Shown: positions 43,081 to 61,345, numbered from the stretch's first letter. The stretch: 64,000 nt of DNA from Puniceicoccaceae bacterium (GCA_040830765.1 JBFOMH010000017.1:1-64000); one strand, 5' to 3'. Made by a program: numbers and translations. Notes: generated by a model not told the origin, from the letters alone.

Positions 43081-43103
43081 TTGACACTCACTCCTCGCAC
43101 ATG
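43081..43103 (+). promoter_or_regulatory. First copy of the late-gene element TTGACA-N13/14-(A/G)TG (12 sites, see findings)
   Basis: ttgaca-ctcactcctcgcac-atg; recurs at 45669, 46391, 49577, 49858, 51272, 51941, 52850, 53467, 56027, 57532, 60970. Confidence 0.85.
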
Positions 43104-43751
43104 AGTGAAACTGAATCAGTGAAAGCCAAGGGCCTGGCCGATGGAATTGAAGTATGGTGTGGTTATGAAAAGCTGGTTCCGGTTGAGGATTTAAAGGCCA
43201 ATCCGCGTAATCCGAATACGCACCCGGTCCGCCAAATTGAACTGCTCGCCAAGAATATTCGATATTTTGGATGGCGCCACCCGATTTCTGTTTCCAGGCG
43301 AAGCGGATTGATTGTGGCCGGCCATGGCAGATTGGAAGCGGCCAAGCATTTGAACCTGCAGCTGGTGCCTGTGGATTATCAGAACTTCGCGAGCGAGAAT
43401 GATGAAATGGCGGTATTGATTGCCGACAACCGTTTGGCAGAACTTGCCAGTGTGGATCTCAATTCACTTGAAGGCGTGATCAACGATTTGAAGGTGGAGG
43501 GATTTGATACGCTGCTGACCGGTTTTGAAGACGCCGATTTGGACAGCCTGCTTTCGCCGGACAATTCAAATGAGGTGCTGGAGGAAGAAGATGGAGAGCT
43601 GGAGAAAGGCGACGTCACGATCACTTTGGGTTTGTATCGTTGGAAGGTCAGCCAGGAGGATTACCTCGCTTGGATTGATTCGGTGAAGCAGGAAGTCGGC
43701 TTCGATAAGGAATCGGTGATGAGGGAATTGAGAAAGCGACTGGGTGTATGA
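43101..43751 (+). CDS. ParB/Srx N-terminal domain protein
   Basis: NPRNPNTHP, FGWRHPI, IVAGHGRLEAA, IADNRLAE. Confidence 0.88.
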   Translation: MSETESVKAKGLADGIEVWCGYEKLVPVEDLKANPRNPNTHPVRQIELLAKNIRYFGWRHPISVSRRSGLIVAGHGRLEAAKHLNLQLVPVDYQNFASENDEMAVLIADNRLAELASVDLNSLEGVINDLKVEGFDTLLTGFEDADLDSLLSPDNSNEVLEEEDGELEKGDVTITLGLYRWKVSQEDYLAWIDSVKQEVGFDKESVMRELRKRLGV

Positions 43752-45259
43752 TCAAGCTTGAGCCATTAGAAGCTGTCGCCCCGTCGACCTACAATCCGCG
43801 CAGCGCGGATCCTCAGCGTCTGGACCTGATTGAGCTTTCGTTAAGGAAACTTGGATTTCTGGCTCCGATCTTTGCCGACGAAAATGGGGAGATTCTTTCC
43901 GGTCACCAGCGACATCTCGTCGCCACCCGGATGGGAGCGAAGCATCTACCGGTATTCCGTACCCGCCCCATGGGGCTCCCTCAAAGAAAGGCGCTGAACA
44001 TCGTTTTCAACCGGGCAACCAATGACTTTGATTGGAACAGTACACCGGAGAAATCCACCCGGGAACTTGCATCACTGGATGTGCATCGCCTTGCGGAATC
44101 GATTTCCGATAAGGCTGTGGATTCCCCCGAATTTATCCGCTGTCTGACTCCGAATCAGGTGAGTGTGAAGGAGCTCTGCCGGACCAATTCCGGAAAGTGG
44201 AAGCAGTATGCGAAGAATCTGGCGAAGACCCTGCATCGAAACGGAATTCTCATGCCGATTATCTGCAAGAGAGATGGTACGGTGATCAATGGTATCGGGC
44301 GCCTTGAAATGCTCGCTGAAAAGAAGATCGAGAATGCTCCTGTCGTATATGTATCGGAAGAGGAGGCAGCTTTCGCAGAAGCGATGATGAACCTGCTTTC
44401 CATGGATTTCGATGTTGAGAGCCGCTATGATGATCTTCTGCGGTATAATTCATTCAGGCGTGCCCGCCGGGTGCGGGAGGAACTGGGCAATGGATTCATA
44501 TTCGCTGTCCACGGGGCAAAGCCTTGCTACACATTTGATATTTTCAATCCGAAGCAGAAGGCAAAGTGGCTGAGGGAACACGGTAATCGCATACTTGATT
44601 TCGGTGCCGGGCACTTGACGGAGACCAAGATTCTCCGCCGGGCGGGAATGGAAGTGTGTGCCTTTGAACCCTATCATATTACGCGATCGGATATTGATAA
44701 GGAGAAGAGTCTTGAGATATGCAGGGAGTTTATTGAAGCAGTTCGAGAAGGCAGAGAGTGGACTTCCATCTTTCTGGCCAGTGTCTTGAACTCGGTACCG
44801 TTCCAGACGGATCGGGAACACATTGCGGTGCTCCTGCAGGCGCTTTGCAGACCGGAAACAAAAGTCTATGCCTGTGCTTCGAGTGTGAGTGAAACCGGTT
44901 GGAGGCAGGTGAATGGGAAGGCATTTTTAAACAAGTCCAATTCAGCGAACATCGCATTCCGGTTGGATTATGAAACGGGAATCAGGATTGGTGATTTCCA
45001 GGACAAGCCGAAGGTGCAGAAGTACCATACGATAAAAGAATTCCATCAGCTATGGACTCCGTTTTTCCGCTCTGTTAGGGTGCGTGAAATGAGTAATAAC
45101 ATTACCGCTACATGCGCACATGCACTACCTGTCGATAAGGAACGGTTGAGGGCGGCAATTGAATTTGAATTTGATCTACCGTATCCGGATGGAACCCGGA
45201 TGGATATGGTTGAGGAAGCAATCGAAGCATTTGAAAAACGATTGGGTGTTAAACTGTGA
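43748..45259 (+). CDS. Double ParB-domain protein fused to a Rossmann methyltransferase-like domain
   Basis: YNPR..GFLAPI..ILSGHQR; second GILMPII..VINGIGR; ILDFGAGH, AFEPY, LASVLNSVPF. Confidence 0.75.
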   Translation: MIKLEPLEAVAPSTYNPRSADPQRLDLIELSLRKLGFLAPIFADENGEILSGHQRHLVATRMGAKHLPVFRTRPMGLPQRKALNIVFNRATNDFDWNSTPEKSTRELASLDVHRLAESISDKAVDSPEFIRCLTPNQVSVKELCRTNSGKWKQYAKNLAKTLHRNGILMPIICKRDGTVINGIGRLEMLAEKKIENAPVVYVSEEEAAFAEAMMNLLSMDFDVESRYDDLLRYNSFRRARRVREELGNGFIFAVHGAKPCYTFDIFNPKQKAKWLREHGNRILDFGAGHLTETKILRRAGMEVCAFEPYHITRSDIDKEKSLEICREFIEAVREGREWTSIFLASVLNSVPFQTDREHIAVLLQALCRPETKVYACASSVSETGWRQVNGKAFLNKSNSANIAFRLDYETGIRIGDFQDKPKVQKYHTIKEFHQLWTPFFRSVRVREMSNNITATCAHALPVDKERLRAAIEFEFDLPYPDGTRMDMVEEAIEAFEKRLGVKL

Positions 45260-45672
45260 TATATCTATTGGATTTAAACTACACGCTGGTTGGGAATTCC
45301 CCAAGAAGGGGAGATCCACCTATCCGGCCATTCATCAGGCAGATCGAGCAAGAAGAGTACCGCCAGTGGTTGGTTGAACTATTGAGGCCTCACAAGGTGA
45401 TTTTAATTACCGCCCGACCGGACCGGTACAGGGAAGTGACCTTGGAGCGTATAAAGGAAAAGACGGGCTGGGAACCGGTGGATGCTTACTTCGCACAAAT
45501 ACAGGCACGACCTCCCCAGATTAAGGAGCACCTTTTGAAAACGCACATCTTCCCAAAGTATGGGAATAATGGATACTTTGCACTTGAGAGTAATCCGTAC
45601 ACTAGGGAGATGTATAAAGGATATGGCATAGAGGCGGTCCGGGTGACGGATCAGGAACTGATGAAATGTTGA
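45256..45672 (+). CDS. HAD-like (PNKP-type) phosphatase-fold protein
   Basis: LLDLNYTLV, LITARP, K, ALESN; degenerate motifs I and IV. Confidence 0.6.
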   Translation: MIYLLDLNYTLVGNSPRRGDPPIRPFIRQIEQEEYRQWLVELLRPHKVILITARPDRYREVTLERIKEKTGWEPVDAYFAQIQARPPQIKEHLLKTHIFPKYGNNGYFALESNPYTREMYKGYGIEAVRVTDQELMKC

Positions 45673-45688
45673 CACTGACTTAACCGGC

Positions 45689-46384
45689 ATGGACGCCGGA
45701 CAGGGGATCGAGACATCGCGCAGCAACTGGGTATTCGACGAAAAGGTCGCACCGAAGTTTGATGAGCATGTGAGAAAAAGCGTTCCCGACTATGATCGGA
45801 TCCAGGATCTGGCAGCAAGTCTTTCTGACTGGTTTGTGAAGGACGGAGGAACCGTTGTGGATCTGGGGGCATCAACCGGTGAAACACTTCATCGCATTCA
45901 AAAACGCAACCCGGCAAAGAAGATCGAGGTTATTGGTTACGACAATTCCAGTGCGATGATCCAGCAGGCGAAGGCAAAGGGAGTGGATGTGCATTTTTGC
46001 GATCTCTCCATGCTTACTGAAATGCGGGGTCACGATTACGGGGTATCGCTCTACACGCTCCAATTTCTGCGCCCGGGAGCCAAGCAGACGGTGCTTTCAG
46101 TATGCTATGATTCATTGAAGCGGGGCGGGGGATTTTTCGTTGTTGAGAAAGTCCATGGAAGCATTCCGGAATTCCAGGACATCACCCAGCAGCTGTACTG
46201 GGAAATGAAACTTGAAAATGGCCTTACACCAAAGGAAGTCCTGAACAAGGCGGCCGCATTGAGGGGCAATATGTTCCCCATGACAGTGGCGGAGAATGAG
46301 GCACTTTTCAGGCGCGTCGGCTTCGTTCGGTATGAGCTTGTATACCGCCATCTGCAATTTGCCGGTTGGCTCCTAATGAAGTAG
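45689..46384 (+). CDS. CmoA-like (carboxy-SAM synthase family) SAM-dependent enzyme
   Basis: WVFDEKVA.KFDEHVRKSVPDY, DLGASTG, DNS..M, YTLQFL, VEK, MKLENG..EV.NK. Confidence 0.8.
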   Translation: MDAGQGIETSRSNWVFDEKVAPKFDEHVRKSVPDYDRIQDLAASLSDWFVKDGGTVVDLGASTGETLHRIQKRNPAKKIEVIGYDNSSAMIQQAKAKGVDVHFCDLSMLTEMRGHDYGVSLYTLQFLRPGAKQTVLSVCYDSLKRGGGFFVVEKVHGSIPEFQDITQQLYWEMKLENGLTPKEVLNKAAALRGNMFPMTVAENEALFRRVGFVRYELVYRHLQFAGWLLMK

Positions 46385-46410
46385 CGGACATTGACACATG
46401 AATCCGGTGC

Positions 46411-47025
46411 ATGGACAACCTGACACCGGATACGGCAACCAAGATTCTCGACGCCGATTTTCAGAACATAGTGAAAAAAGTCGCGGGAGGGAAGACGCTT
46501 ACTGTTGCCGAGAGGGCACTGATTGAGGCACGGGCCTCCGGGAGTAATAACACAACGGCCTATGCCAAGACTGTTGTGGAATTATCTGAGGTACTGGGAG
46601 TAACCAGGCGGACGGTCGGCATGTGGCGCAAAATGCAGGGAGCACCAAAACCACTGTCCAACGGCGACCATGATGTTTCCGCATGGAGAGAGTTTGTCCG
46701 GTTAAACGGCCTGAAAGGCGGCAAGGAACTGGAGGGAGCCAACCATGAGGCCCTAAAGGCAAGGCGGCTACTTGTCGATATTGAGGAACGGGAACTTCGC
46801 CTGGCTATAAAGAGGGGAGACTACCTGCCCATGGAAGAGGTGAGACGGACTGTGATTGAGGGGATGGCACGGCTCTTCGCCATCTTACACAAACGACTCG
46901 AGGACGAATTGCCACCACTGTCCTGTGGAAAGGATGCAGTGGGTATCCGGGAGGAGAATGCCAAGGCTTTGGATGAGGCCCGGCAGGAGGCATATGAATT
47001 TTTCAGCGGATGGACCACAGCTTAA
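46411..47025 (+). CDS. Terminase small subunit
   Basis: HTH (ELSEVLGVTRRTVGMW..GAP), coiled coil ELRLAIKRGDYLP; overlaps the large subunit. Confidence 0.75.
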   Translation: MDNLTPDTATKILDADFQNIVKKVAGGKTLTVAERALIEARASGSNNTTAYAKTVVELSEVLGVTRRTVGMWRKMQGAPKPLSNGDHDVSAWREFVRLNGLKGGKELEGANHEALKARRLLVDIEERELRLAIKRGDYLPMEEVRRTVIEGMARLFAILHKRLEDELPPLSCGKDAVGIREENAKALDEARQEAYEFFSGWTTA

Positions 47026-48818
47026 ATCCTGAAATTGCCGGCATGTTTGCCGAAGGGGTAAAACCTCCGGACAGGCGTCCTCCATGGCAGTGGGCTGAGG
47101 AGCATGTTACTTCCATCCCATATTCGCCTATGCCCGGACGGTTCCGCTCGGACAATTCACCGTGGGTTAGGGAGGTAATGGAGGCGATGGTGGATCCGCG
47201 GGTGAAAGTGGTGTCCATTATCGCATCTGTCCAATCCTCAAAGACGACCGCTCCGGAGCTGACCCTCTCTTACATCATATCCAACTTGCCCGGGCCCACC
47301 TTGTGGCTGGACCAGACTGACGAGGATGCGAAGGACCAGTCCGAGTCGCGCCTGCAAAAACTCTTCGAGGAATGTGAACCGGTTAAAAACTTGTATCCAA
47401 AAGACCGGCACAAAAGGAGAAACCATACTATCCACTTTGCCAATGGAATGACGCTCTGGATCCTTGGGGCACATAACAAAACCAATCTGCAACGCCGTTC
47501 CATTCGCTGGTTGATCGGTGATGAAACGTGGCGCTGGCCAACAGGACATATGGCTGAGGCGGAAGCCCGTGTAACTGCTTTCGGATGGCTGGGTAAATGC
47601 ATCTTCATGTCCCAGGGCGGTGAGGAAGATGATGATACGCATCGCAAATTTGAGACGACTGACATGCGCGAATGGACTTTCCAGTGTCCACATTGTGGAA
47701 AGCGTCAGCCCTTCGACTGGGATAATGTGGAGTGGTCCAAATCGGCAAGAACAGCGGAAGGGGATTGGGATTTCACTGAAGTGAGGAAAACCACTTCGCT
47801 TCGGTGTTGTGAGTGTAACCATTACTTTGCTGATTCGGATGCGACCCGCCGCCAGCTCAATGCCACGGGCAAGTTTGTGCGGACCAACCCGAAGGCATCT
47901 GAAGAGAATGTGGGATTTCATTGGAATGCCCTGTGCGCAATGTCGTGGGGGAAACTTGCGGAGATGTACCTTCGGGCCAAGGCAGCAGCAAGGCAGGGCG
48001 ACACATCCTTGTTGCAGCAGTTTTATCAGAAGCGACTCGCATTGCCCTGGAGGGAGTATGTTGAGGACTTCAAGGCGGATATTACCCGTAGCAACTATTG
48101 CATGGGGGATCCATGGCCGGATGAGGGGTATCTGACGGCAAAAGGCACGGTTGTGGATTCACCCACCGATGGTGCCACGGTTGTCCCGCTTCGATTCCTT
48201 TCAGTGGATGTGCAGATGGATCACTTCTGGTTGGTGGTCCGTGCCTGGAGTGCCAGCGGATCCTCAAGGCTAATGTGGTGCGAGCGTGCCCTCACATGGG
48301 AGGACGTTGAGCGGGTACAGGAACGCTTTGGTGTCCACGGCAGCTTGGTATTTGTGGATGCAGGATACAACAGCTATGAGGTATACCGCCACTGTGCCCG
48401 AAAGGGCTGGACTGCCCTAATGGGGGATAACCGTCCAACTTTCACCCACAAGGTAGGAAAACAAAGGGTTCAACGCTTCTACTCTCCGGTGCGGAAGGTC
48501 TATGTAGCCAATGGACAGGTTTGCCGGATGCACTATTGGAGCAATCTGAACATGAAGGATTCGCTCGCCAGGCTGCGGAGGAATCTGGAAGGCGGACCTA
48601 CATGGGAGATCCCCGAAGACATCCCCGAAGAGTACCTGCTTCATATGGACTCAGAGCACCGGATTAAGAGGGGCGGTAAATGGTTCTGGGATCAGATCGG
48701 CAAACGCCCGAACCACATGTTTGATGCGGAGTGCGAGCAGGTTGTCGGAGCCCATATGCTTAAGATTATTGGGCGCGAAAGTGTGCCTCAATCAGGAGAA
48801 TCCGATCCCGAAGGATAA
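47010..48818 (+). CDS. Terminase large subunit, lambda GpA family
   Basis: PPWQWAE, SVQSSKT, IGDE, CPHC..C.EC, GFH, SVDVQ, VDAGY, NHMFD. Confidence 0.92.
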   Translation: MDHSLNPEIAGMFAEGVKPPDRRPPWQWAEEHVTSIPYSPMPGRFRSDNSPWVREVMEAMVDPRVKVVSIIASVQSSKTTAPELTLSYIISNLPGPTLWLDQTDEDAKDQSESRLQKLFEECEPVKNLYPKDRHKRRNHTIHFANGMTLWILGAHNKTNLQRRSIRWLIGDETWRWPTGHMAEAEARVTAFGWLGKCIFMSQGGEEDDDTHRKFETTDMREWTFQCPHCGKRQPFDWDNVEWSKSARTAEGDWDFTEVRKTTSLRCCECNHYFADSDATRRQLNATGKFVRTNPKASEENVGFHWNALCAMSWGKLAEMYLRAKAAARQGDTSLLQQFYQKRLALPWREYVEDFKADITRSNYCMGDPWPDEGYLTAKGTVVDSPTDGATVVPLRFLSVDVQMDHFWLVVRAWSASGSSRLMWCERALTWEDVERVQERFGVHGSLVFVDAGYNSYEVYRHCARKGWTALMGDNRPTFTHKVGKQRVQRFYSPVRKVYVANGQVCRMHYWSNLNMKDSLARLRRNLEGGPTWEIPEDIPEEYLLHMDSEHRIKRGGKWFWDQIGKRPNHMFDAECEQVVGAHMLKIIGRESVPQSGESDPEG

Positions 48819-49051
48819 ATCGTGGGATTCCCTGTTTGCATCAATAATCCTGAAACAAACGGTTCATTATGGGATTTGGTTACCTCCCTTCTTGGCATAG
48901 ATTGAAGGTTATCATGTAGGTATGGGGAATTATCCAGAATGTAGGCATCTTCTGGAAGTATTGCTTGGATTGCTGCGGCTCCAAGTACCGTATATGTAAT
49001 ATACTTTTTCATAGTACTGGGAGTTACACTTATTCAGTGATTTAGGGAATA

Positions 49052-49561: not shown

Positions 49562-49596
49562 TCAACTAGCCAACGATTGACAATAAGTCGCCTTCG

Positions 49597-49851
49597 ATGG
49601 CGACAATTGATTATTCCATAGGTTTTACCCAGACGGAGGTAGAGGAGATCCTCACCGCTCAAAAGGCTGAGTTGAAAAAGACATTGGCCGCTTACGCCAA
49701 TGATGGATCCAGTGTGACCAAACGCCGTATTGATGAAATTCATGAGATCATCTCTGCCTGCCAGAAGGCCCTACAGAAGCTCGCTCCCGATACTTATGGT
49801 AAGGGGTTGAAGGTATCCCGGACGGGATTTGTCGACCACATGCAGTTGTAG
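49597..49851 (+). CDS. Probable gpW-like head completion protein
   Basis: 84 aa directly before the portal gene; YANDGSSVTKR; preceded by TTGACA-N14. Confidence 0.6.
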   Translation: MATIDYSIGFTQTEVEEILTAQKAELKKTLAAYANDGSSVTKRRIDEIHEIISACQKALQKLAPDTYGKGLKVSRTGFVDHMQL

Positions 49852-49876
49852 GCATGATTGACATGTGCCTGGAGCC

Positions 49877-51322
49877 GTGAAGATCCTCCAAAGCATTGGC
49901 AAAGTTCTAATGGGTTCATCCTATGAGGCGGCAAATCCATCAATTCGCCGTTCAAGGGTGCCTGGTGCCGCGCCGTCCGATGCAAGAAGGGAGTTGACGG
50001 CCCATACCCGCCGCGAACTGGTACGCAAAAGCAGATACCTGAACAAGAACAGTGGTTTCTCTCGCGAGGTCGTGGGGGACATGGCGATTTATTCGACCGG
50101 AGATGGAATCCGTCCCCAGGCACAAACAGCGGATCCAGCATGGAACAGGCAGGCGGAGGAATTTTTCAAACGGTGGTCCGCACGTCCCGAAGTGACCAAC
50201 CGGTTCTCATTCGAGGAATGCCAGAATCTGGTTTGCCGGGGAATCGATGTGGACGGGGAATATTTTGTATTGAAAATTCGCGACAAGTTCGGACGTGCCC
50301 GGATACAGTTGGTGGAATCCCACAGGATAGGATCGGCTTCTGAGGATAGAAAGGTGATCGATGGTATTGAATTTGATGCGATAGGAGCGCCGTTTGCTTA
50401 TCATCTTATCCAGGACAATGGAAAGCCTCGGAAGGTGTTCGCCAATGCGGTGATGCATGTCTTTGAACCGGAGTTTGCAAGTGGTGCGCGAAGTCACCCG
50501 ACTTTGCAGCATTCCATCAACCACATTCTCGATGAAATGGAGATGCTTGCGTTGGAAAAGCATGCGGTGAAGGATAATCAGGATGTTTCACGGATCATTA
50601 AGCGCGAAAGCGGAACTTTGGAGGATGATGGAGATTTTAGAGTATCGCCGGATACAGGTGAAGCAGCTGACCAGAGTGATCCGTCCGCTATCCAGAGAAT
50701 CACAGGAGGCAAGGTCCTGGCATTGAAGCCGGGAGAGTCCATGGACAGTTTTCAGTCGAACAGGCCAAGCTCCATGTTCACCGGATTTCTGGAGCACTTG
50801 AAGCGGGACAGCAGCGCCGGGGTACTCCCCTATGAATTTGTACTGGATTCATCCAGTGTGGGTGGTGCCGGAGTACGCTTGATTGTAGCGAAGGCAGACC
50901 GTCGCTTTTCCTACCGGCAACTAATCCTCATCCAGCGATTCCTCAAACCAACATGGGGCTGGGTGATTGGTGATGCCATTGATAGGGGAGAGTTGGAACC
51001 GATGAAGGGTTGGAACAAGGTGACCTGGGTTACTCCACGCCGCATCACGGTCGATGCAGGCCGGGAGGCAGAATCCCACCGGAAAGATGTGGAGATGGGC
51101 CTACTCACATTTTCGGATCATTTCTCAGAGATTGGAATGGATTTTCGCGAAGAAATTGAGCGTAGGGCACAGGATTCAAGAGACATATTGGATATGGCAA
51201 ACCGATATGGTGTACCCGTGGATATGCTCTATCGCCCAAGTGGGACGAAAAGTACTCCTGCTCAGGAACCTTTGACATCGGACGGGGGCAGTGCCCCACA
51301 AAGATCCGAAGAAGAAAGCTGA
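49877..51322 (+). CDS. Portal protein, lambda gpB family
   Basis: RELVRKSRYL..N, DGEYF, DGIEFD..G.P..YH, LKPGE; GTG 49877 chosen from the upstream motif. Confidence 0.9.
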   Translation: MKILQSIGKVLMGSSYEAANPSIRRSRVPGAAPSDARRELTAHTRRELVRKSRYLNKNSGFSREVVGDMAIYSTGDGIRPQAQTADPAWNRQAEEFFKRWSARPEVTNRFSFEECQNLVCRGIDVDGEYFVLKIRDKFGRARIQLVESHRIGSASEDRKVIDGIEFDAIGAPFAYHLIQDNGKPRKVFANAVMHVFEPEFASGARSHPTLQHSINHILDEMEMLALEKHAVKDNQDVSRIIKRESGTLEDDGDFRVSPDTGEAADQSDPSAIQRITGGKVLALKPGESMDSFQSNRPSSMFTGFLEHLKRDSSAGVLPYEFVLDSSSVGGAGVRLIVAKADRRFSYRQLILIQRFLKPTWGWVIGDAIDRGELEPMKGWNKVTWVTPRRITVDAGREAESHRKDVEMGLLTFSDHFSEIGMDFREEIERRAQDSRDILDMANRYGVPVDMLYRPSGTKSTPAQEPLTSDGGSAPQRSEEES

Positions 51323-51944
51323 ATACAACCGCCGCTACTACCAAGAAAACCGGGAGCGGCTTAAGGAACATGCACGTAAATATTACCACGATAATATTGA
51401 TGCTCAAAAAATTGTTAGAAAACAATGGCGAGAGGCCAACAAAGACAAAGTTAAAGCTTCAAACAAAGCATACCAGCGAGAGCAAAAGCAAAAAATACGA
51501 GAATATCAACAGGGTCGGAAGAATGATCCTGAGGTCATTGCAAAACGCCGAAATCAAAAGCGTCGATACTATCAACAGCGAATTCAAAGAGATCCACAAT
51601 GGCGGGTAGTTCGTGCTCTTCGTCTTCGACTTTGGACTGCGCTTAAGCAGCGTAAAATAGACAAGTCAGAATCCAGCCTCGAACTTGTTGGATGCGAAAT
51701 CAGTGCCCTCGTCAGACACATTGAAAACCTGTTTCAGCCAGGAATGTCTTGGGAAAATTACGGATCAAAAGGCTGGCATATTGACCACATTACTCCCTGC
51801 GCTGCCTTCGATCTTAGTGATCCAGCACAACAGAAGAAATGTTTCCATTACACGAACCTGCAACCTCTATGGGCGAGAGACAATATAGTTAAAGGGCATA
51901 GTCTTCCCACATCGCTTTCTGAAGCAGTCGTCCCACCCGGTTGA
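51291..51944 (+). CDS. HNH-type endonuclease, homing-endonuclease-like
   Basis: Basic repetitive N-terminus; GMSWENYG..WHIDHI.P..CFHYTNLQPLW..N..K. Confidence 0.85.
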   Translation: MPHKDPKKKAEYNRRYYQENRERLKEHARKYYHDNIDAQKIVRKQWREANKDKVKASNKAYQREQKQKIREYQQGRKNDPEVIAKRRNQKRRYYQQRIQRDPQWRVVRALRLRLWTALKQRKIDKSESSLELVGCEISALVRHIENLFQPGMSWENYGSKGWHIDHITPCAAFDLSDPAQQKKCFHYTNLQPLWARDNIVKGHSLPTSLSEAVVPPG

Positions 51945-51965
51945 CAGAGTCCAGTTTCAACAAAC

Positions 51966-52035
51966 ACGAGGGAGAAAAGGATTCGGTCGGGCTCATAACC
52001 CGGCAACGCAGGTTCGATTCCTGCCCCTCGTCCCA
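51966..52035 (+). tRNA. Atypical tRNA-Met(CAT), initiator-like anticodon arm, miniature D-arm
   Basis: ACGAGGG/CCCTCGT acceptor stem, TCGGG-CTCATAA-CCCGG, GCAGG-TTCGATT-CCTGC, C73 then CCA. Confidence 0.85.
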
Positions 52036-52044: not shown

Positions 52045-52866
52045 ATGAGACTAGCACACATCACCAATACAATGTATCGGCAGCCCTGGAATATCACCAC
52101 CGATGGCTGGCTGTCGTTGCATCAGATTGTACAAAGCAGGTTGTTTAACGATGCCGTGAATCTGGATTTTTCAGATTTCGTAAATCCCCGCCCGGATGGT
52201 GAAATTGACGGTAATGGTATCGCTCATATCCATGTAATGGGTACTTTGGGGAAACACTTAAGCCAGATTGAGCGTTCCTGCGGCAACACCGGATATGAGC
52301 AAATAGAGGAGGAGATTCGTATAGCAAACGAAGACGGTGCAAAGGGATTCCTGTTTCATATCAATTCTCCGGGAGGAATGGCTGCCGGTAATATTGAGAT
52401 TTCCCGGATGCTTTCAGAAATCAAGAAACCAAAGGCTGTTTGGGTGGATGAACTGGCAGCCTCGGCAGCATATGCCATAGCCAGCGGTGCCGACATTATT
52501 GCGATGGCGCCATCGGCACAGGTCGGGAGCATAGGTACTATTCTTCCATTGGTTGATGTGTCCGGTGCATGGGAGCAGAGGGGATGGAAGCCCGCTTACA
52601 TCACCCATACCGGAGGAGATCTAAAGGATGCCACATGGCCTCCATCATTCACTGATGAGCACCGTGCCCACCTTCAGGAAATGGTGGACGATTATTTCGG
52701 ACAGTTTAAGGAACACGTCTTACAACACAGGAACATGGGACCGGATGCCATGCGCGGACAGACATTCATAGGTCGCAAGGCGAAGGAGGCGAATTTGGTG
52801 GACCATGTGGGCAGTCTGGAAGACACCTACGCGGAGCTCCTCAAGCGGGTTGACAAGGCAAAGTAG
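52045..52866 (+). CDS. S49 family prohead protease
   Basis: INSPGG, AASAAYAIAS, VGSIG. Confidence 0.92.
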   Translation: MRLAHITNTMYRQPWNITTDGWLSLHQIVQSRLFNDAVNLDFSDFVNPRPDGEIDGNGIAHIHVMGTLGKHLSQIERSCGNTGYEQIEEEIRIANEDGAKGFLFHINSPGGMAAGNIEISRMLSEIKKPKAVWVDELAASAAYAIASGADIIAMAPSAQVGSIGTILPLVDVSGAWEQRGWKPAYITHTGGDLKDATWPPSFTDEHRAHLQEMVDDYFGQFKEHVLQHRNMGPDAMRGQTFIGRKAKEANLVDHVGSLEDTYAELLKRVDKAK

Positions 52867-52868
52867 GC

Positions 52869-53381
52869 ATGGATTTTCCAAAAGCAGAAGAACTCAACAC
52901 ACTGGCACAGGCACGCGATGCATTTGCTTCCCTTCTCTCAGAACATGAAGCCTCCCGGGATAATCTTTCCCAGGCTTCAGAGGCTCTTGATAAGGCAAAT
53001 GCTGAACTGGATGCGGTGCGTGACGACCTGAAGGCGGCCAATGAAATGCTCGATGAGGCGAATACCAATATTGGTTCCCTGACCGGGAAGTTGAAAGAAT
53101 CCCAGGATAAGGAGCAGACTCTCAGTAATGAATTGAAAGTGGCCAAGGAGTTGAACCAGTCGGTTGAACAGAAGGTTTCCAAGCTGGAAGCAGATGCAAA
53201 GTCTGCTGAGGCTAAAGCGGCTGAAATCTGTGCTTCCGTTGGTGTGGAGCCTGCGCAGGTTACTCCGGGTGGGGAGCCTAAACAGCAGTCCCTGATTGAG
53301 CAATTGAAGGAGATCAAGAATCCTGCTGAACAAATGACTTTCTTTCGCAAGCACCGCGACGAGATCATTAAGGGGCATTAA
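52869..53381 (+). CDS. Probable coiled-coil scaffolding protein
   Basis: Heptad-rich; lies between protease and capsid genes. Confidence 0.6.
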   Translation: MDFPKAEELNTLAQARDAFASLLSEHEASRDNLSQASEALDKANAELDAVRDDLKAANEMLDEANTNIGSLTGKLKESQDKEQTLSNELKVAKELNQSVEQKVSKLEADAKSAEAKAAEICASVGVEPAQVTPGGEPKQQSLIEQLKEIKNPAEQMTFFRKHRDEIIKGH

Positions 53382-53410: not shown

Positions 53411-53442
53411 GCGCTGTGGTTTACGGGCCATGGCGCTTTTTT
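53411..53442 (+). terminator. Intrinsic terminator upstream of the capsid gene
   Basis: gcgctgtggt-ttacgg-gccatggcgc followed by T6. Confidence 0.7.
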
Positions 53443-53485
53443 GTATCCAGATCTCCAGCACAGCGGTTGACACGCCATGCAGTGC

Positions 53486-54391
53486 ATGGCCAATAACCTT
53501 ACCGAAGTACAAGACCTGCGCATCGCAGACAAGTTTCTGGAAGCCTTTGTTGCTGAACTGACCGCCCTGCGTGCCTTCTCCACTGATTTTACCCCTGAAT
53601 TTGCCAAGCGTGGCAAGACCGTGAATGTTCCGGTTATCGGGGCCGCGAACTCTTCCTATGACTTCGCCGGCAGCTATTCCGCAAATGCGGACAGCGATGT
53701 CCAGGGAATCCCGGTTGTGCTGGATAAGCATAAAGTACAGTCGCTGCACCTGACTGATAAGGAAGTGAGCGAATCCGCATGGGTATCTCTAGAACGCCTC
53801 GCAATATCCAAGGCCCGACAGTTAGCACAGGATGTCCTCACCGACATCTGGAGTCTTGTGACCATCGAAAATTATGGTCCGGCTTCGATTCCTGGACTTG
53901 CGGCCACTGACTTTAGTGCTGATTCAGTCCTCGCAGTCCGACAGGCTTGTGCCGCTGCAAAGATGCCGGCCACTGATCGTGCACTTATCCTGGATAGTGC
54001 CTATTACTCCAATCTGCTTGGGGATGCCAAGATTTCCAATAGCTATCTTAGTCAGATGAGTGCACCATCGCTCATGGAGGCGAAGATTCCAAGGGTCTAT
54101 GGATTCGATATCTACGAAACCACCATTATGCCGGACAATGCGGAGAACCTGGTCGGTTTTGCAGCCCATCCTCGGGGAATTGCAGTAGCGATGCGCTACC
54201 TTCAGCCAATCGACAGCTCAGCCTATCTGGATGCAGGACCGGTCACTGACCAGTCCACTGGTATCACCCTCGGGTACCGAAAGTACTACGATACCGATTC
54301 AGGTAAGATGATCGCCGCATTTGAGTGTGTCTACGGATACCGCAAGGCAATCGCCGATGGTATCAAGCGTATCGAAGATACCGGGGCTTAA
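53486..54391 (+). CDS. Major capsid protein
   Basis: About 300 aa after protease and scaffold; GKTVNVP, IPRVYGFDIYE, ECVYG; followed by a terminator. Confidence 0.8.
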   Translation: MANNLTEVQDLRIADKFLEAFVAELTALRAFSTDFTPEFAKRGKTVNVPVIGAANSSYDFAGSYSANADSDVQGIPVVLDKHKVQSLHLTDKEVSESAWVSLERLAISKARQLAQDVLTDIWSLVTIENYGPASIPGLAATDFSADSVLAVRQACAAAKMPATDRALILDSAYYSNLLGDAKISNSYLSQMSAPSLMEAKIPRVYGFDIYETTIMPDNAENLVGFAAHPRGIAVAMRYLQPIDSSAYLDAGPVTDQSTGITLGYRKYYDTDSGKMIAAFECVYGYRKAIADGIKRIEDTGA

Positions 54392-54418: not shown

Positions 54419-54448
54419 AGGGCTCCATCTCACCGGTGGGGCCCTTTT
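54419..54448 (+). terminator. Intrinsic terminator after the capsid gene
   Basis: agggctccatc-tcacc-ggtggggccct followed by ttt. Confidence 0.7.
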
Positions 54449-54475
54449 GTATTAAAGTCTTCTACGGTTAAATCA

Positions 54476-54892: not shown

Positions 54893-55042
54893 AATTTTCC
54901 CCTTTCTCTTAATTAAGTACGTTCTTTCCTGAGCTTAACCTTGCTTGGATTTTCTATAATGTAACGAAATGGAAGTGGCCTATATTCAATCGCCCAATAT
55001 TAGAAATGAGGTAATCTGGGTGCGTCTTCGAATAGTCACGGG

Positions 55043-55774: not shown

Positions 55775-56045
55775 TCGTGTTTTCTCCCTTCGTCTAAAGA
55801 CTCTACAAAATAATAGTTGTCTATTGGTTGGTTGTACAAACTTGGGGTTAGCGTTTCGTGGTGACGGATAAGGGTACTTTCTGGTAAATGCGAGACTTTT
55901 CCCAATTCTATAAGCCTTTATCAAATGACCTTCTCGGTTGATTTCAATGTTGTAGTATTCCTACTATATAGGCAAAGCGTGATCATCGACTCTATTGGCC
56001 AATCGTGAAAACAGCCTGACACTATGTTGACAAGCCCTTCGGGGC

Positions 56046-56360
56046 ATGAGTTTCGAATCAGATCAATTGGAGGGTTTCAGGGAACTGCTGGAAACATCCG
56101 GTGGCCTTTTTGTTCACCCATCCGGAGAGTTTCGTGGCCTGGTTAAGCGTATTGAACCGGAGAATGAGGAGTTTGACCTGACCCCCGGCGACGACGACCG
56201 GGTACAGGTATCGGGGCTAAAGACCGAAGTCCCTGCTGAAGTGGTCAAGGTGGGAGCATCCTTAACTGATTCCGAAGACTATTCGTACCGGGTAACCGGG
56301 ATACGCCGCTCACCAAACCATGTGGCTGTGCGCCTTGAATGCGAAGTTGTGAACCCATGA
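56046..56360 (+). CDS. Probable head-tail joining protein
   Basis: Size, position and C-terminal YRVTGI..VRLEC beta pattern. Confidence 0.55.
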   Translation: MSFESDQLEGFRELLETSGGLFVHPSGEFRGLVKRIEPENEEFDLTPGDDDRVQVSGLKTEVPAEVVKVGASLTDSEDYSYRVTGIRRSPNHVAVRLECEVVNP

Positions 56361-56614
56361 CGCCTGAGGATCTAAAGAAAGACTGCGATATTTGCAGGGA
56401 AAGGTTGGCTGAACGCTTTGCCCAGATGGAACACCGTCTGACCACATTGGAAATCACCCTCTGGGGACAGGATGGCAGCAATGGTATCAAGGGCACCCTC
56501 AATGAGTTGAAGCGTAAGATGGACATGCTCCTTCGCTTCTTCTGGGGAGCGAGCGCTGCACCGGCAATCACCATCGCGCTTCTGGCTGTGCTAAAATTTC
56601 TGGGAATGATATGA
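56357..56614 (+). CDS. Small coiled-coil protein with C-terminal TM helix (holin-like?)
   Basis: LWGQDGSNGI then ITIALLAVLKFLGMI. Confidence 0.5.
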   Translation: MTPEDLKKDCDICRERLAERFAQMEHRLTTLEITLWGQDGSNGIKGTLNELKRKMDMLLRFFWGASAAPAITIALLAVLKFLGMI

Positions 56615-57189
56615 GACAGGATCTGGTTGAGTTTAACCGGAGCCTGCAAAAGTACCTGCAGTACAACAAGCGGGACCTGGGCCCCCTGATTGAAAACCGT
56701 GGCCGGCGGATTCAATGGGCACTGTATCGACAATTTCGCGACATTGCTCCGACTCCCGGTAAAATCATGCAGGACGCAAAGTCTAGGCAGTACCGGATCA
56801 AGAGACGCAAAGGCAAAAGTGGGAAGAAGTTGTCTTTGAAGCAGGAGCTGGCAGTGCGGCGCCAGTCTGTGAAGTGGCTTTCGGTTAGTTTCCTGATTCG
56901 CAATTGGAAGGCAAAGAGGGAAGGGCAGGCGGCTGCCTATCATGCTGTATCGCGCAAGAAGTGGAAGATAGGAAAGGCGATTCTTCGGACTGCAAAGGGG
57001 AGGAGTAATCCAAGTGTGCGGATTGAAAGCTATTTGGAGGGTGCTGCCATCCAGAACGCCCAGCGTGGTATCGTGAACCGGGTGATAAGCGGTGAGGCAG
57101 CTGACATGGAAACCTATGTGGCCCGCAAGCAACAGGAGGCCTTCAAGCGCCAGTTTGGCCGGGCACTAACCCAAATAATCCGCATATGA
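56611..57189 (+). CDS. Basic neck/tail-completion protein
   Basis: Position; ATGA coupling on both sides. Confidence 0.5.
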   Translation: MRQDLVEFNRSLQKYLQYNKRDLGPLIENRGRRIQWALYRQFRDIAPTPGKIMQDAKSRQYRIKRRKGKSGKKLSLKQELAVRRQSVKWLSVSFLIRNWKAKREGQAAAYHAVSRKKWKIGKAILRTAKGRSNPSVRIESYLEGAAIQNAQRGIVNRVISGEAADMETYVARKQQEAFKRQFGRALTQIIRI

Positions 57190-57623
57190 CTCTTTCAGAT
57201 ATAGTCCCAACGATTGTTACCCTCTTAAAAGGCAGCGAGTTGCTCTCAACACTGGAGATCCTCACCAATGCGGATGAGAGCTACAACACGAGGCTGGAGC
57301 AGGCATTGCGGGAGAAGGGCGTGGCACTGGTCGTGGTCCAGTCAGCGGGGGAATTGAAGGACAAGAAGAGTCCGCTCCTTTATTTGGTGAATTCGGTTAT
57401 GGTGACCGTACTTGAGAATCCGGCCACCAATGAGACAGGCACAAGTGCCCTGGGCATTGTGGAGGAGGTATTAAGGCAGGTGCACGGGGCACAGTGGAAA
57501 ACGCAGAAGGGATTACAGAACCGGTACACGGTTGACACCCCCGCGTACGAGATGGGGCCGCTCGATGGAGGGCTGATCACGTACTTCTGCAACTTTCACA
57601 TTCTGACCATTCACGAAAACTAA
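57186..57623 (+). CDS. Probable tail terminator protein
   Basis: 145 aa immediately before the tail tube candidate. Confidence 0.5.
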   Translation: MTLSDIVPTIVTLLKGSELLSTLEILTNADESYNTRLEQALREKGVALVVVQSAGELKDKKSPLLYLVNSVMVTVLENPATNETGTSALGIVEEVLRQVHGAQWKTQKGLQNRYTVDTPAYEMGPLDGGLITYFCNFHILTIHEN

Positions 57624-58154
57624 ATGAACTCTTCTGCCCGTGTAATTGGAAACCACGCCTTCTTTGTCCGTGAGGGCGACACTGCAACAACGCCCGCCGG
57701 CGATGTCAGCAAACTCTTGAAACCTGATGTGGATGATCCTTCCTGGATCAACCTCGGGGTCATCGAGCAGGCGGGGATCGAATACCAGTCCGAAGAGAAG
57801 GAAGTATGGCAACCTTCCCCCGGACAGCTGCGACTGGCGGATGTAATCGAGGTGAAGCGCGGCCTGAAGCTTTCCTTCACGGTTAAGGAAATGAGCGCAC
57901 TCATGTTCGAGCTCATGTTCGGCACCGAGGCCCTCACCGATGCCTCCACCCAATACAATCCGCTGGAGGGAACGACGAAGAAGGGGTGGCTCAAACTCCA
58001 GCAGTATGACCATCACGACGCCATTGTGAATACAACCGATGTGTATGTTCACCTGAAGGTATCAAGCGAAGTATCCCTGGGAGACGATGTCGCGACCTTT
58101 GAAATCGAGGCCCGAGTGCTCCACAGCACCCTTAACACCGGAACGCTTGCGTAG
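57624..58154 (+). CDS. Probable tail tube protein
   Basis: WINLGVIE..LKLSFTVKEM..GDDVATFEIE beta-rich pattern; position. Confidence 0.6.
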   Translation: MNSSARVIGNHAFFVREGDTATTPAGDVSKLLKPDVDDPSWINLGVIEQAGIEYQSEEKEVWQPSPGQLRLADVIEVKRGLKLSFTVKEMSALMFELMFGTEALTDASTQYNPLEGTTKKGWLKLQQYDHHDAIVNTTDVYVHLKVSSEVSLGDDVATFEIEARVLHSTLNTGTLA

Positions 58155-58585
58155 TGGCTGAAGCGATCACAGTTGAATCTGCCCAATATGATAATGGGGA
58201 TGCCTTCCCGAATACTCTGGGGTTTGAAGGTGCTTCACCAGTTGCACCTGCGCCAAGGGATTTAGCCGCCGCCACGCAATCCGACGATGATGCGTTACCC
58301 ATTGCAGGGGATCTGCCCGGGAGCGTCCATTCCAACGATGATGCGATTCCTATTCCATGGGATCAGGCCAGTGGCGAGCATTCCAATGATGCTGCCGTTC
58401 CTATTTCAGGGAATCTGCCCGGGAGTGTCTATTCCAACGATGATGCGGTCCCGATAGCAGGGGACTTGCCCAACACAATCCAATCAAACGATGAAGCTGA
58501 AGCATTCGGAATGGATGGACTGAAATTTCCTCCTGAGGGAGCGGTCATGGATATCGAGGGCCACTACCTGTTTGTTTGCACCTAG
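58154..58585 (+). CDS. Acidic protein with 17-aa tandem repeats
   Basis: SNDDAxPIxGDLPGSVH-type unit about 4.5 times. Confidence 0.6.
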   Translation: MAEAITVESAQYDNGDAFPNTLGFEGASPVAPAPRDLAAATQSDDDALPIAGDLPGSVHSNDDAIPIPWDQASGEHSNDAAVPISGNLPGSVYSNDDAVPIAGDLPNTIQSNDEAEAFGMDGLKFPPEGAVMDIEGHYLFVCT

Positions 58586-58594
58586 AACTTTGTC

Positions 58595-59005
58595 ATGTCG
58601 ATTCTACTACAAGTCACTGCCGCGGAAATCAATAACGGCGTCCAGAAGGCCAACACCGAAATCGACGGGAAGGTCCCGAAGCCTGGATTCAATACCCAGA
58701 CGGGAACAAGTTACACTCCCCAACTAACAGATAACAACGGTGTCATTGAAATGGATAGTGCAGAGTTGAACACGGTGAATCTGCCCACAGACGCAGAGGT
58801 CGCTTTCCCGGTTCCCTCTGAAGGGATTTTGCGGACCTCTTTCGATGTCGTGCCAATTGGTGCCGGGACGACAGCTATCCAGGCACCTGCAGGAGTGCTT
58901 CTAAATGGAATAGATGGAGGAACCATTTTGAGCCTTGATCCATATGCGGCCATGGCCGTGTACAAGAGGGGCGAAAATGACTGGGTGGCAATTGGAGGGG
59001 AATAA
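58595..59005 (+). CDS. Virion structural/fibre-associated protein
   Basis: NTQTGTSYT..D..VAFP..GAGTT.I..GV.LNG..NDWVAIG pattern seen in phage fibre domains. Confidence 0.55.
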   Translation: MSILLQVTAAEINNGVQKANTEIDGKVPKPGFNTQTGTSYTPQLTDNNGVIEMDSAELNTVNLPTDAEVAFPVPSEGILRTSFDVVPIGAGTTAIQAPAGVLLNGIDGGTILSLDPYAAMAVYKRGENDWVAIGGE

Positions 59006-59008
59006 GCG

Positions 59009-59443
59009 ATGCCTGTACTGACCGTATTGATCCGTGGAATACATCCGAACAAGGGCTGGAGAGGCACTCCCCGGAATGTTTTTGCTGATCCTTTAATTCA
59101 GATTGGCCTACAGGATTTGGACTATGAGCTGGTTGTCGTGTCAGGCGACCCCGGATCGCAGGATGCACTCATTGAAATGGGGCTTCAGAGTGTGGACTAC
59201 ATGGCGGCAGTGATTGATGCCGGAAGCCCAATCCCGGATGAGGCAGTTGTTGAGATGGGACTTCAAAGCGTGGACTATATGGCAGCAGTGATAGATGCCG
59301 GAAGCCCAATCCCGGATGAAGCAGTGCTTAATATCGGTATCCAGAGCGTCGATTACTTTGATGCAATTCCCTTCAGCTCAACCTTTATCGACGAATCGAA
59401 AGTGGAGATGGGACTCCATTCAGTTGACTACTCAATCCCGTAA
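59009..59443 (+). CDS. Acidic protein with 26-aa tandem repeats
   Basis: EMGLQSVDYMAAVIDAGSPIPDEAVV unit; 78-bp period at 59174, 59252, 59330. Confidence 0.65.
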   Translation: MPVLTVLIRGIHPNKGWRGTPRNVFADPLIQIGLQDLDYELVVVSGDPGSQDALIEMGLQSVDYMAAVIDAGSPIPDEAVVEMGLQSVDYMAAVIDAGSPIPDEAVLNIGIQSVDYFDAIPFSSTFIDESKVEMGLHSVDYSIP

Positions 59444-59448
59444 AAGAC

Positions 59449-60669
59449 ATGAAAAACCGCAAAATCACAGGAAATATTGGCTTTGGGGCCAAGGTACTTT
59501 TTAAGACCCAGATCTTGAACAAGGATGGATCGATCGCCAAGGAGCGGGATTGGGACCACAACCTTGTCCTGGATATTGGTCTGGACATGATGTGCCGTGA
59601 CAAGTTCGCCTCCCTCAACGAGGTGTGTGAAATCGGTACCAGCACTACTCCAACCGAGCGTGACAGCGGTTCGATCACCTTCACCCAGACTGGGGACACG
59701 ATCACAGCCAGTGGAGCTTTCTTTGAATCCGGTGACGTGGGACGCCTGTTCAAATATGACACAGGTGAAGAATATTATATCACCGCATTCACGGATGATC
59801 AGAATGTAACAGTTGATACCAGCGCTGCCCATTCCGCAACCGAGGCCACGATCTACTACGTGAACCAGACGGGGCTCATATCTCCCACGAAGGTTACAGA
59901 AAACAAGGTAACCGGAGGAGGTAACTGCGGCACAACATATTCCAATGGAGTTTTGGAACACAAAAGAACGTTCCTTTTCCCGGCTGAGACTGCGGAAGTC
60001 ACCTACAACGAAATTGGATGGGGACCAAAGTACGACTATAACAATACAAATGGTGGTACTTCAACAACCCGCAATGGATTGGGCAATTTACGGTTTGGCC
60101 GGGCTATTATTGCCGGAGGTGACACCCTGCAGGCCGACCAGCAGTACAAGGTTGCAGTCCGTGTTCAGGTTGCCTTCAGCCCGGTGACCCAAACCCCCGT
60201 TGCAAACGTCGGGAACAATGGATTCGACACAACTGGCGATCACATCATCGCACAACTTGTTACAGCCATTGGCCAAGGTGGCGCCAATTCCTATGTTGAT
60301 TCAAATGGATATACCCAGGGTGACGCCCGCATGGAGCCTATGTATACGCCAACCTTGGCGATGATGGCCAATACCGCTGTGTTGCCGACCGAGCCGGCTT
60401 CCGGAAATGTGAATTACCCGGACTTAAATTACTACACCATGACCAGGGGAAATTACACCGAGGGTAATCACTACCGTGAACACACCAAGGTGTACGCTCC
60501 AAATGAAGGGAATTCATCAGCCATTCGTGGATTCATGCTCGGTCAAAATTATGCCAGTGATTTCTATGGCCACTATCTGCTCAAATTCGATGCTGACCAA
60601 GAGAAGCTGGATACACACCGGCTCACAGCCACCTTCCGCTGGACGGTCAGCAGACAGCTAGTGAACTGA
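59449..60669 (+). CDS. Thr/Gly-rich tail structural protein
   Basis: NLVLDIGLD..IGTSTTP, NEIGW; beta-rich. Confidence 0.6.
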   Translation: MKNRKITGNIGFGAKVLFKTQILNKDGSIAKERDWDHNLVLDIGLDMMCRDKFASLNEVCEIGTSTTPTERDSGSITFTQTGDTITASGAFFESGDVGRLFKYDTGEEYYITAFTDDQNVTVDTSAAHSATEATIYYVNQTGLISPTKVTENKVTGGGNCGTTYSNGVLEHKRTFLFPAETAEVTYNEIGWGPKYDYNNTNGGTSTTRNGLGNLRFGRAIIAGGDTLQADQQYKVAVRVQVAFSPVTQTPVANVGNNGFDTTGDHIIAQLVTAIGQGGANSYVDSNGYTQGDARMEPMYTPTLAMMANTAVLPTEPASGNVNYPDLNYYTMTRGNYTEGNHYREHTKVYAPNEGNSSAIRGFMLGQNYASDFYGHYLLKFDADQEKLDTHRLTATFRWTVSRQLVN

Positions 60670-60715
60670 TAACAGGGTGGTGCCCATTAGTTGGGTTGCA
60701 TTTGCTTGATTCCAA

Positions 60716-60961
60716 ATGAAGAGGTTTCAGGACATTGAAGTCGGTCGCTGGTTCCTGAAAGAGGGTCGGGTCTGCCAGCGTCTGGAACCGCTAAACGGAT
60801 CAAATACCTACAATTTCACTCGTTCGAAGTGGGACTACACCCACCCCAAAACCCCGGTTGAGCCAACCTTCTCCCCTATTCACCCAAAGGACTTTGGACC
60901 GGGACGAAAGGCCGTGGAAACAATCCACCTGTTTGGTGATGGTCTCTGGGCGAAGGGCTGA
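60716..60961 (+). CDS. Small hypothetical protein
   Basis: 81-aa ORF filling the gap. Confidence 0.45.
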   Translation: MKRFQDIEVGRWFLKEGRVCQRLEPLNGSNTYNFTRSKWDYTHPKTPVEPTFSPIHPKDFGPGRKAVETIHLFGDGLWAKG

Positions 60962-60991
60962 ACTAACGGTTGACACACCCTCATCCGTATC

Positions 60992-61345
60992 ATGGCGGAT
61001 GAAAATCAAGGCAATGTGATCGCCAAGGGCGGTCAGGAACTCGAAGTGCAACTGGAAACCGGTCACTGCGAGACGGTGAAGGTACGACTGCTCCCATTAG
61101 GGAAAATGCCGGATTTCTTCCGGGGCCTGGATGACGACATCTTCTTGATCCAGTTGGTCACTGGAAAAACCAAAACCTTCGCAGAATCGCTCAACTTTGA
61201 GAGCGGGATGGAAATCGTGGAAAAGGCGCACGAGGTAAATTTCCCCAATGCCCTCCGGTGGTCGGAAAGGAGGGCAAAGCGGCTCGCTCCACTGATTCCC
61301 ATGGCCGAGAAGGGAATGAAGATCCAGCGACAATTGATGACCTGA
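60992..61345 (+). CDS. Tail assembly chaperone (gpG-like)
   Basis: Two overlapping ORFs just before the tape measure gene. Confidence 0.6.
   Translation: MADENQGNVIAKGGQELEVQLETGHCETVKVRLLPLGKMPDFFRGLDDDIFLIQLVTGKTKTFAESLNFESGMEIVEKAHEVNFPNALRWSERRAKRLAPLIPMAEKGMKIQRQLMT

Follow-up and report, generated by a model that had tools for sequence, protein, structure and literature searches.

Promoters built around a short element close to the start of a gene are known from both phages and bacteria, and we compared them with a TTGACA hexamer (hereafter, the box) that recurs ahead of late genes in a siphovirus-type prophage of a marine verrucomicrobial host, Puniceicoccaceae bacterium (GCA_040830765.1). 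The window analyzed here comprises the first 64 kb of contig C17 (JBFOMH010000017.1:1-64000; 64,000 nucleotides, nt) from a 4.0-Mb genome with 56% G+C. Late promoters of phage T4 consist of a single A+T-rich element of the -10 type that is read by gp55 together with gp33 and the sliding clamp. As proposed for the prophage, one short element suffices, late promoters are numerous in the genome, and T4 proteins replace parts of the sigma factor; the T4 element differs in being an A+T-rich -10-type box, and no gp55 or gp33 homologue was found in the prophage. In the Q-loading paused complex of phage lambda, sigma region 4 occupies a -35-like hexamer ~1 bp upstream of a -10-like element, so that a hexamer of the -35 type is readable at roughly the same position relative to the polymerase active center as the box; however, the lambda site is a single pause site past a normal promoter and needs its -10-like element. 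Late promoters giving leaderless transcripts have been described for the Thermus phages Lalka27a and YS40 (bioRxiv 10.64898/2026.04.20.719267). They are likewise present in many copies per genome, their late-specific consensus is proposed to depend on a phage factor that acts on the host polymerase, and in most of their transcripts the first base is the A or G of the start codon; unlike the box, they have a -10 element of the TANNNT type (TAGGGT), located six bases ahead of the start, along with a C at -25. The '-10 motif next to the ORF' (ORF, open reading frame) leaderless promoters of Deinococcus-Thermus (PMC12340547) resemble the box in having a single element fixed a few bases before the ORF and in yielding leaderless mRNAs. 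Their element is a TANNNT read by the host RpoD as a genome-wide host feature, whereas the prophage element is TTGACA, is confined to phages and is absent from host gene starts.

The same hexamer is used in a different layout within the host group. Host genes showed peaks for TTGACN-N30-ATG (22 against ~4) and TANNNT-N6-ATG (70 against ~35), their use of Shine-Dalgarno motifs was weak, and the host RpoD has a standard region 4.2 sequence. Five genes of the cultured Puniceicoccales phage P8625 (NC_029047.1) have TTGACA 29-30 nt ahead of ATG, and none has it at 13-15 nt. P8625, which shares both the hexamer and the host group with the prophage, and the host itself thus have a leaderless layout of the form TTGACA-N17-(-10 box)-N7-ATG, with the start codon at the predicted transcription start, 30 nt from the hexamer, and with a second, -10-position hexamer 6-7 nt before ATG. 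To judge from these layouts, leaderless expression seems to be normal in the host clade. The prophage layout lacks the -10 box and places the hexamer 17 nt closer to the start codon than the canonical 30-nt layout does. No peak for TTGACA at 13-14 nt was found at host genes anywhere in the genome, and in two cultured Verrucomicrobia phages the compact layout was present at 0 of 14 and 0 of 7 plus-strand boxes. A term search of the P8625 paper (PMC4642752) returned no instance of the word 'promoter' in the text it covered.

The late region of the prophage extends from 43 kb and encodes ParB-like proteins, the small and large terminase subunits, portal, protease, capsid, and tape measure proteins. 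Both strands of the window together hold 21 copies of TTGACA, compared with 35.8 in shuffled sequences (standard deviation 5.9). Twelve copies lie on the plus strand at 43081-60970 and two more at 31372 and 36718, within 12.7-43 kb, whereas the minus strand has none beyond 24577; for the plus strand, this exact count agrees with the one made by eye in the original prediction, an earlier reading of the sequence alone. All 12 late hexamers are identical to the perfect sigma-70 -35 hexamer. Gene names assigned in that reading were backed by PHROGs matches for ParB, terS, portal, and capsid, but its 'gpW-like', 'scaffold', and 'head-tail' genes gave no family match. The intrinsic terminator it had placed at 53411-42, ahead of the capsid copy, is indeed a hairpin followed by a T-run. 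The boxes and the associated features are listed below.

43081..43103, plus strand: box, 14 nt, and ATG of the ParB-like gene 43101-43751 (sequence, PHROGs)
45669..45691, plus strand: box, 14 nt, and ATG of the methyltransferase-like gene 45689-46384; the box TGA is the stop codon of ORF 45256-45672
46391..46413, plus strand: box, 14 nt, and ATG of the small terminase gene 46411-47025 (sequence, PHROGs)
49577..49599, plus strand: box, 14 nt, and ATG of an 84-aa gene 49597-49851; gaps in orthologues are 13-17 nt
49858..49879, plus strand: box, 13 nt, and GTG of the portal gene 49877-51322; the spacer varies in nearly all orthologues, with hexamer and distance kept
51272..51293, plus strand: box, 13 nt, and GTG of the endonuclease gene 51291-51944; the box lies within the end of the portal ORF
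51941..52035, plus strand: box, 19 nt, and phage tRNA-Met (CAT) 51966-52035; the box TGA is the stop codon of ORF 51291-51944
52850..52871, plus strand: box, 13 nt, and ATG of a 170-aa gene 52869-53381; the box lies within the end of the protease ORF
53411..53442, plus strand: terminator-like hairpin and T-run, folding free energy (dG) -16.8, 24 nt ahead of the capsid box
53467..53488, plus strand: box, 13 nt, and ATG of the major capsid gene 53486-54391 (sequence, PHROGs)
56027..56048, plus strand: box, 13 nt, and ATG of a 104-aa gene 56046-56360 (sequence, orthologues)
57532..57537, plus strand: intragenic box in codons GTT GAC ACC of ORF 57186-57623, 86 nt ahead of ATG 57624
60970..60994, plus strand: box, 16 nt, and ATG of a 117-aa gene 60992-61345, upstream of the tape measure gene (sequence)
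36268..36813, plus strand: candidate reader and regulator gene, 181 aa, with a C-terminal helix-turn-helix (longest ORF from 36202)
36718..36723, plus strand: intragenic box at the 3' end of the regulator gene, 37 nt ahead of the ATG of ORF 36761-37453

The gap between hexamer and ATG or GTG is 14 nt at boxes 43081, 45669, 46391, 49577, and 57532, 13 nt at 49858, 51272, 52850, 53467, and 56027, and 16 nt at 60970. The spacing originally reported for ten boxes was therefore correct, as were the 16-nt spacer at 60970 and the position of box 51941 before the tRNA, but the ATG following box 57532 proved to be an internal methionine codon of ORF 57186-57623 rather than a gene start. Thus, nine of the 12 boxes stand 13-14 nt ahead of true gene starts, one stands at 16 nt, one precedes the tRNA, and one is intragenic. 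Elsewhere in the 4.0-Mb genome, ATG or GTG follows at 13 or 14 nt after 39 of 1294 hexamers (3.0%), and at this rate the chance of at least 10 of 12 boxes having a start at that distance is P = 4e-14 (binomial). No second cluster of boxes was found anywhere else in the genome. Earlier in-frame codons are present at two boxes (GTG 49865 after box 49858 and ATG 53477 after box 53467), and orthologues back the starts at 49877 and 53486.

None of the 12 boxes has TANNNT at a spacer of 15-19 nt, in line with the sites checked by eye originally, and they thus lack the -10 element of a sigma-70 promoter. No Shine-Dalgarno motif was found in the box spacers of the window, and the box genes go without one, so that the element stands at a fixed short distance from an ORF that has no Shine-Dalgarno motif, as in leaderless promoters. 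A transcript beginning ~30 nt past the hexamer would start within the gene, whose N-terminal residues are conserved as protein, and the hexamer would fall at about -19 to -14 of any transcript start that includes the start codon. The label '-35-only' used in the original prediction hence describes the sequence of the hexamer but misleads as to its position. Two other roles were rejected for the box: its TGA doubles as the stop codon of the preceding ORF at just 2 of 12 sites (45669 and 51941) and cannot serve generally in this way, and its TTG would be a start codon in the wrong frame for both the 13- and 14-nt gaps.

Conservation was assessed in 38 related loci (9 genomic and 29 viral; 66-91% identity, 48-63% G+C) that were found via the portal protein and whose hosts are named Opitutales or Puniceicoccales. 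Hexamer and distance persist across this portal set. Together with the late region of the window (475 kb in all), the set contains 317 TTGACA on the plus strand versus 24 on the minus strand. Distances from box to ORF start peak sharply at 13 nt (132 cases), with 33 at 14 nt, 19 at 15 nt, and no more than 6 at any other distance in the range of 10-18 nt. The 270 distinct sites comprise 116 at 13 nt, 32 at 14, 15 at 15, 5 at 16, 6 at 17, 12 at 20, 6 at other distances, and 78 without a start at 8-21 nt; a start codon 13-15 nt past the box is thus present at 163 of them. Among orthologues the spacer has been freely rewritten while the hexamer and the distance have been kept, the portal gene being the clearest case.

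The sequence logo has a G ahead of the hexamer in 72% of sites and a GG-pyrimidine (GGY) block directly ahead of the start codon, the last spacer base being a pyrimidine in 88% of the 13-nt and 88% of the 14-nt sites. This block shifts together with the start codon, and window genes without a box have no GGY context. No -10-type box appeared in the logo of the 116 sites. The resulting consensus reads G-TTGAC-A/T, ~10 free G+C-rich bases, GG-pyrimidine, and then the purine that opens ATG or GTG. The antisense strand is depleted of the hexamer: the 24 copies in 475 kb compare with ~70 expected from Markov models of orders 1-3 and from the host sense-strand density (~3-fold depletion), although a model of order 4 expects 34. 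Counts on the plus and minus strands of five whole provirus records were 21:4, 19:4, 19:0, 16:0, and 30:3. Scarcity on the untranscribed strand suggests that the box is hazardous in the DNA itself, for example as a promoter that fires in the wrong direction.

Boxes that do not precede a start codon are conserved as well, including two within coding sequence that are kept at synonymous positions remote from any start. The box lies exactly 19 nt ahead of tRNA-Met in all eight tRNA-bearing phages, across diverged spacers, and in all eight the protease ATG (52045 in the window) lies 9 nt past the tRNA 3' end, so that excision of the tRNA would leave a protease mRNA with a short leader. The tRNA (70 nt, with a shortened D arm and the CAT anticodon at position 29; Rfam tRNA score 39.9 bits) has GGG/CCC closing its anticodon stem in 8 of 8 phage copies, as is characteristic of initiator tRNAs, and is in this respect initiator-like; its 1:72 pair is A-U or G.U. 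The host has an initiator-like tRNA of its own on contig C21. In relatives without the tRNA, a box is found at the end of the portal gene, with the protease ATG ~25-27 nt later, a distance that suggests a short-leadered rather than a leaderless protease unit. These boxes are at the following positions.

L013 7920, L027 9850, L029 9777, L032 11361, and L008 11400: portal-end boxes in tRNA-less relatives

At least 15 related phages keep the intragenic box 57532, encoded as GTT GAC AMC, and in most of them no ATG follows the hexamer. Box 36718 encodes the Leu-Thr of the sequence RSLTAR in the regulator protein, and at this position Leu-Thr is written TTG ACA in 27 of 27 distinct sequences, compared with frequencies in the same regulator ORFs of 9.6% for TTG among leucine codons and 7.5% for ACA among threonine codons. 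The peptide pattern used for this count also matched 29 other sequences, which have different residue pairs and no box. The regulator-gene box was present in 40 of the 42 loci checked, with the next gene 37-45 nt downstream.

The regulator gene that carries this box (36268-36813) lies between the replication and the late genes. Its family has more than 549 members of ~180-210 aa, in which the conserved C-terminal half is a helix-turn-helix. Homologues are encoded by the window phage and by all four further whole provirus records (G001-G004), whereas the protein is absent from the two cultured Verrucomicrobia phages that also lack the compact layout; none was found in 50,697 GenBank phage records. 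In a set of contigs found through the regulator itself (the best 80 of 135 matched contigs), distances from box to start numbered 31, 30, and 30 at 13, 14, and 15 nt and 17 at 18 nt, with no more than 5 elsewhere. An unbiased positional count of hexamers ahead of 974 candidate starts from 70 loci with at most 52% identity ranked GTTGAC at -20 and TTGACA at -19 first, and TTGACT was likewise high-ranked. In 42 of the 80 loci, which were checked for gene order, the 12-16-nt sites are nearly all downstream of the regulator gene (3 are upstream). Searches with Pfam and PHROGs found no sigma factor or RNA polymerase gene in the prophage. Looking for longer, fused forms of the regulator yielded one match, in which it is joined to a DNA polymerase and which is probably a gene-call artefact. 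The first ORF past the regulator box (36761-37453, 230 aa) has weak matches to DUF1016_N and DUF3102 and adjoins the regulator in close relatives; an atlas look-up returned unnamed clusters only. It could encode a second regulatory component.

We consider it rather probable that the box is a phage-specific compact promoter with the transcription start 0-3 nt before the start codon. After induction, a phage factor would direct the host RNA polymerase to each box, the best candidate being the helix-turn-helix protein 36268-36813, which would recognize G-TTGAC-A/T. Transcription would start at the purine after GGY, 13-15 nt past the hexamer, at the start codon itself or 1-3 nt upstream; this start-site placement predicts both the GGY-purine junction at the codon and the exact 13-15-nt spacing. 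Expression of the late genes would thus rely on many leaderless or short-leader (1-3 nt) mRNAs. Leadered exceptions would be the unit of tRNA and protease, the gene that follows the regulator, and the tail gene at 57624. Leaderless and short-leader mRNAs are probably translatable by the host, whose own canonical layout is leaderless and which makes little use of Shine-Dalgarno motifs. Left ends of RNA-library contigs, which tend to lie just past box-linked starts (counts are given below), are a weak hint in the same direction. Strong terminators are located directly ahead of the capsid box (in the window, L001, and L011) and ahead of the next gene's box (in L023, L030, and L036), where they call for re-initiation. 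The late promoter with leaderless mRNAs proposed in the original prediction has thus gained comparative backing, short of proof, from conservation, the tRNA, the intragenic copies, the antisense depletion, and the helix-turn-helix protein.

A more far-reaching form of this proposal is tentative. It holds that a sigma-region-4-like phage protein may read the -35-type hexamer at -19 to -14 in place of both -35 and -10 recognition, that the polymerase may start on the start codon of nearly every late unit, that the box-driven initiator-like tRNA may help leaderless translation, and that the system may be spread across a broad group of uncultured tailed phages that infect Verrucomicrobia and probably other G+C-rich hosts too. 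Should the boxes prove to be promoters, a single hexamer without a -10 box would aim the polymerase at a position where no known element works alone. Promoter recognition of this kind would be new, as would the route by which phages take over host transcription, and late transcription units and true start codons could be located by one simple criterion in thousands of genomes from uncultured phages. The box-driven initiator-like tRNA hints at a joint tuning of transcription and leaderless translation. With a reader candidate and many natural spacer variants at hand, the idea is directly testable in vitro.

Several observations weigh against a compact promoter or against the regulator as its reader. 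To our knowledge, no described promoter has its sole element at -19 to -14, and our literature searches returned no paper describing a solitary hexamer of the -35 type placed around -19 to -14. The spacer is G+C-rich, with no A+T-rich or TANNNT-like element between box and start. Terminator-like hairpins are not enriched ahead of boxes (17 of 270, compared with 58 of 975 random positions). Folding of the spacer together with the first 27 coding bases was more stable than when the spacer was shuffled (mean z -0.96), an excess that could point to a function at the RNA level. Contigs were also available from four runs of two studies that are labelled or guessed as RNA; as contigs, they do not give RNA ends, strand, or level. 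One of them (49569-53239) starts 8 nt before box 49577 and spans four more boxes, so box sequence is present in the library, as read-through RNA or as DNA.

The case for the regulator as the box reader is circumstantial, although it draws on several lines of comparative evidence. The AlphaFold2 (AF2) model of the protein (predicted local distance difference test, pLDDT, 76) has its best structural match in residues 198-280 of sigma32 (8hkc_E; Z 6.1, root-mean-square deviation 3.9, 82 aligned), and the best Foldseek E-value, again to sigma32 region 4, was 0.035. However, many sigma-4 domains score ~Z 5 against the model, and AsnC- and GerE-type helix-turn-helix domains score alike. No Pfam domain exceeded the cut-off for the family, and below it MarR_2 matched 33 of 36 members, compared with 13 of 36 for Sigma70_r4 and 5 of 36 for Sigma70_r4_2. 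An hhalign comparison of the regulator with the host RpoD gave a probability of 0.2, and PDB sequence searches with the regulator and the following gene returned nothing below E 0.2. A predicted complex of regulator residues 62-152 with the host RpoB flap (775-905) scored 0.00, which speaks neither for nor against the assignment. The 'sigma-4-like' label is accordingly a lead rather than a finding.

An alternative that we regard as unlikely is RNA processing, in which a long late transcript would be cut at UUGACA by a phage or host endoribonuclease, giving mRNAs and the pre-tRNA short 5' ends. Such cutting would fit the box before the tRNA, the contig spanning several boxes, and the extra foldability of the spacer region. 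It would also fit the clustering of contig left ends just past box-linked starts: 12 left ends lie 0-50 nt past such a start among the 31 pieces listed (of 109), or 9 of 28 when three ends at 57575 are left out, compared with ~0.8 (~3%) expected. No right end of these contigs lies in that interval, and one left end lies at most 50 nt upstream of a box-linked start; we take from this a weak hint that library cover tends to begin at box-linked genes. However, antisense depletion is unexpected for a signal read in sense RNA alone, and the conserved intragenic copies would cut the upstream gene's own mRNA. Moreover, RNase P alone would release the tRNA 5' end, and what co-occurs with the box is a protein of DNA-binding type, with no nuclease candidate.

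An equally doubtful alternative is that the helix-turn-helix protein binds the box as a DNA site other than a promoter, for the loading of an antitermination or processivity factor, for polymerase pausing at gene starts, or for repression. Its co-occurrence with the family, its strand bias and locked position, and the absence of a visible melting element would all be compatible with such a site. Yet the exact 13-15-nt spacing and the pyrimidine-purine junction are what start-site placement predicts, and terminators directly before boxes call for re-initiation. Known antiterminator loading sites are single, whereas the box has at least 10 sites per genome.

The remaining alternative, a translation signal as raised in the original prediction, in which UUGACA would replace the Shine-Dalgarno motif through rRNA pairing or through binding of a ribosomal or phage protein, is now very improbable: the tight distance to the start codon, the box genes without Shine-Dalgarno motifs, and the weak use of such motifs by the host would suit it (no 16S rRNA gene was found in the assembly when searched to check pairing), but it is disfavored by the fixed distance to the tRNA in 8 of 8 phages, by copies kept 37-45 and 86 nt from the next start or without any start after them, by the antisense depletion and the absence of such a signal at host genes, and by a gap of 13-15 nt that exceeds the usual Shine-Dalgarno range (5-10 nt).

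Specific RNA structures around the box were rejected. Hairpins with the hexamer in the loop (stems of at least 4 bp) were present at 9.8% of 266 sites in the portal set compared with 10.1-11.6% in controls, which excludes them as a feature of the clade; box-enclosing stems reached 27% versus 13-16% in the regulator-found set, a difference driven partly by orthologous sites. A helix of fixed register within the 13-nt spacer was likewise not supported, as the best tested pair had z 2.9 over 135 distinct spacers and there was no covariation; the GCC...GGC visible in the logo is composition. The contig starts at 57575, shared by three runs, were rejected as RNA ends because they overlap a contig end at 57604 by 30 letters, which we took as the assembler's word-overlap and hence infer to be an assembly branch. 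In another RNA-library contig, 59215 is followed directly by 59294, so that 78 nt are missing, and 26 letters would fit on either side; this is probably a repeat-length variant of the gene region 59009-60669 in a related strain.

The prophage follows tRNA-Ser 12566-12656, and several modules lie between this tRNA and the early phage genes (12566-29704). They include genes for a NOV_C-domain protein, a DEAD-type helicase, and two integrase-like proteins (17262-18446 and 19537-20715), as well as a minus-strand type I restriction-modification set with HipA-like, DUF3037, and Hypoth_Ymh genes (20716-29704). These modules may represent a separate defense island or two tandem elements. Two moron-like inserts of low G+C content (~43%) carry no box. 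The first (37828-42000), ahead of RadC, contains GrpB, VanY-type peptidase, methyltransferase, kinase-like, HIT, and hydrolase genes, and the second (55043-55924, minus strand) contains a DUF4386 membrane-protein gene between the capsid and head-tail genes.

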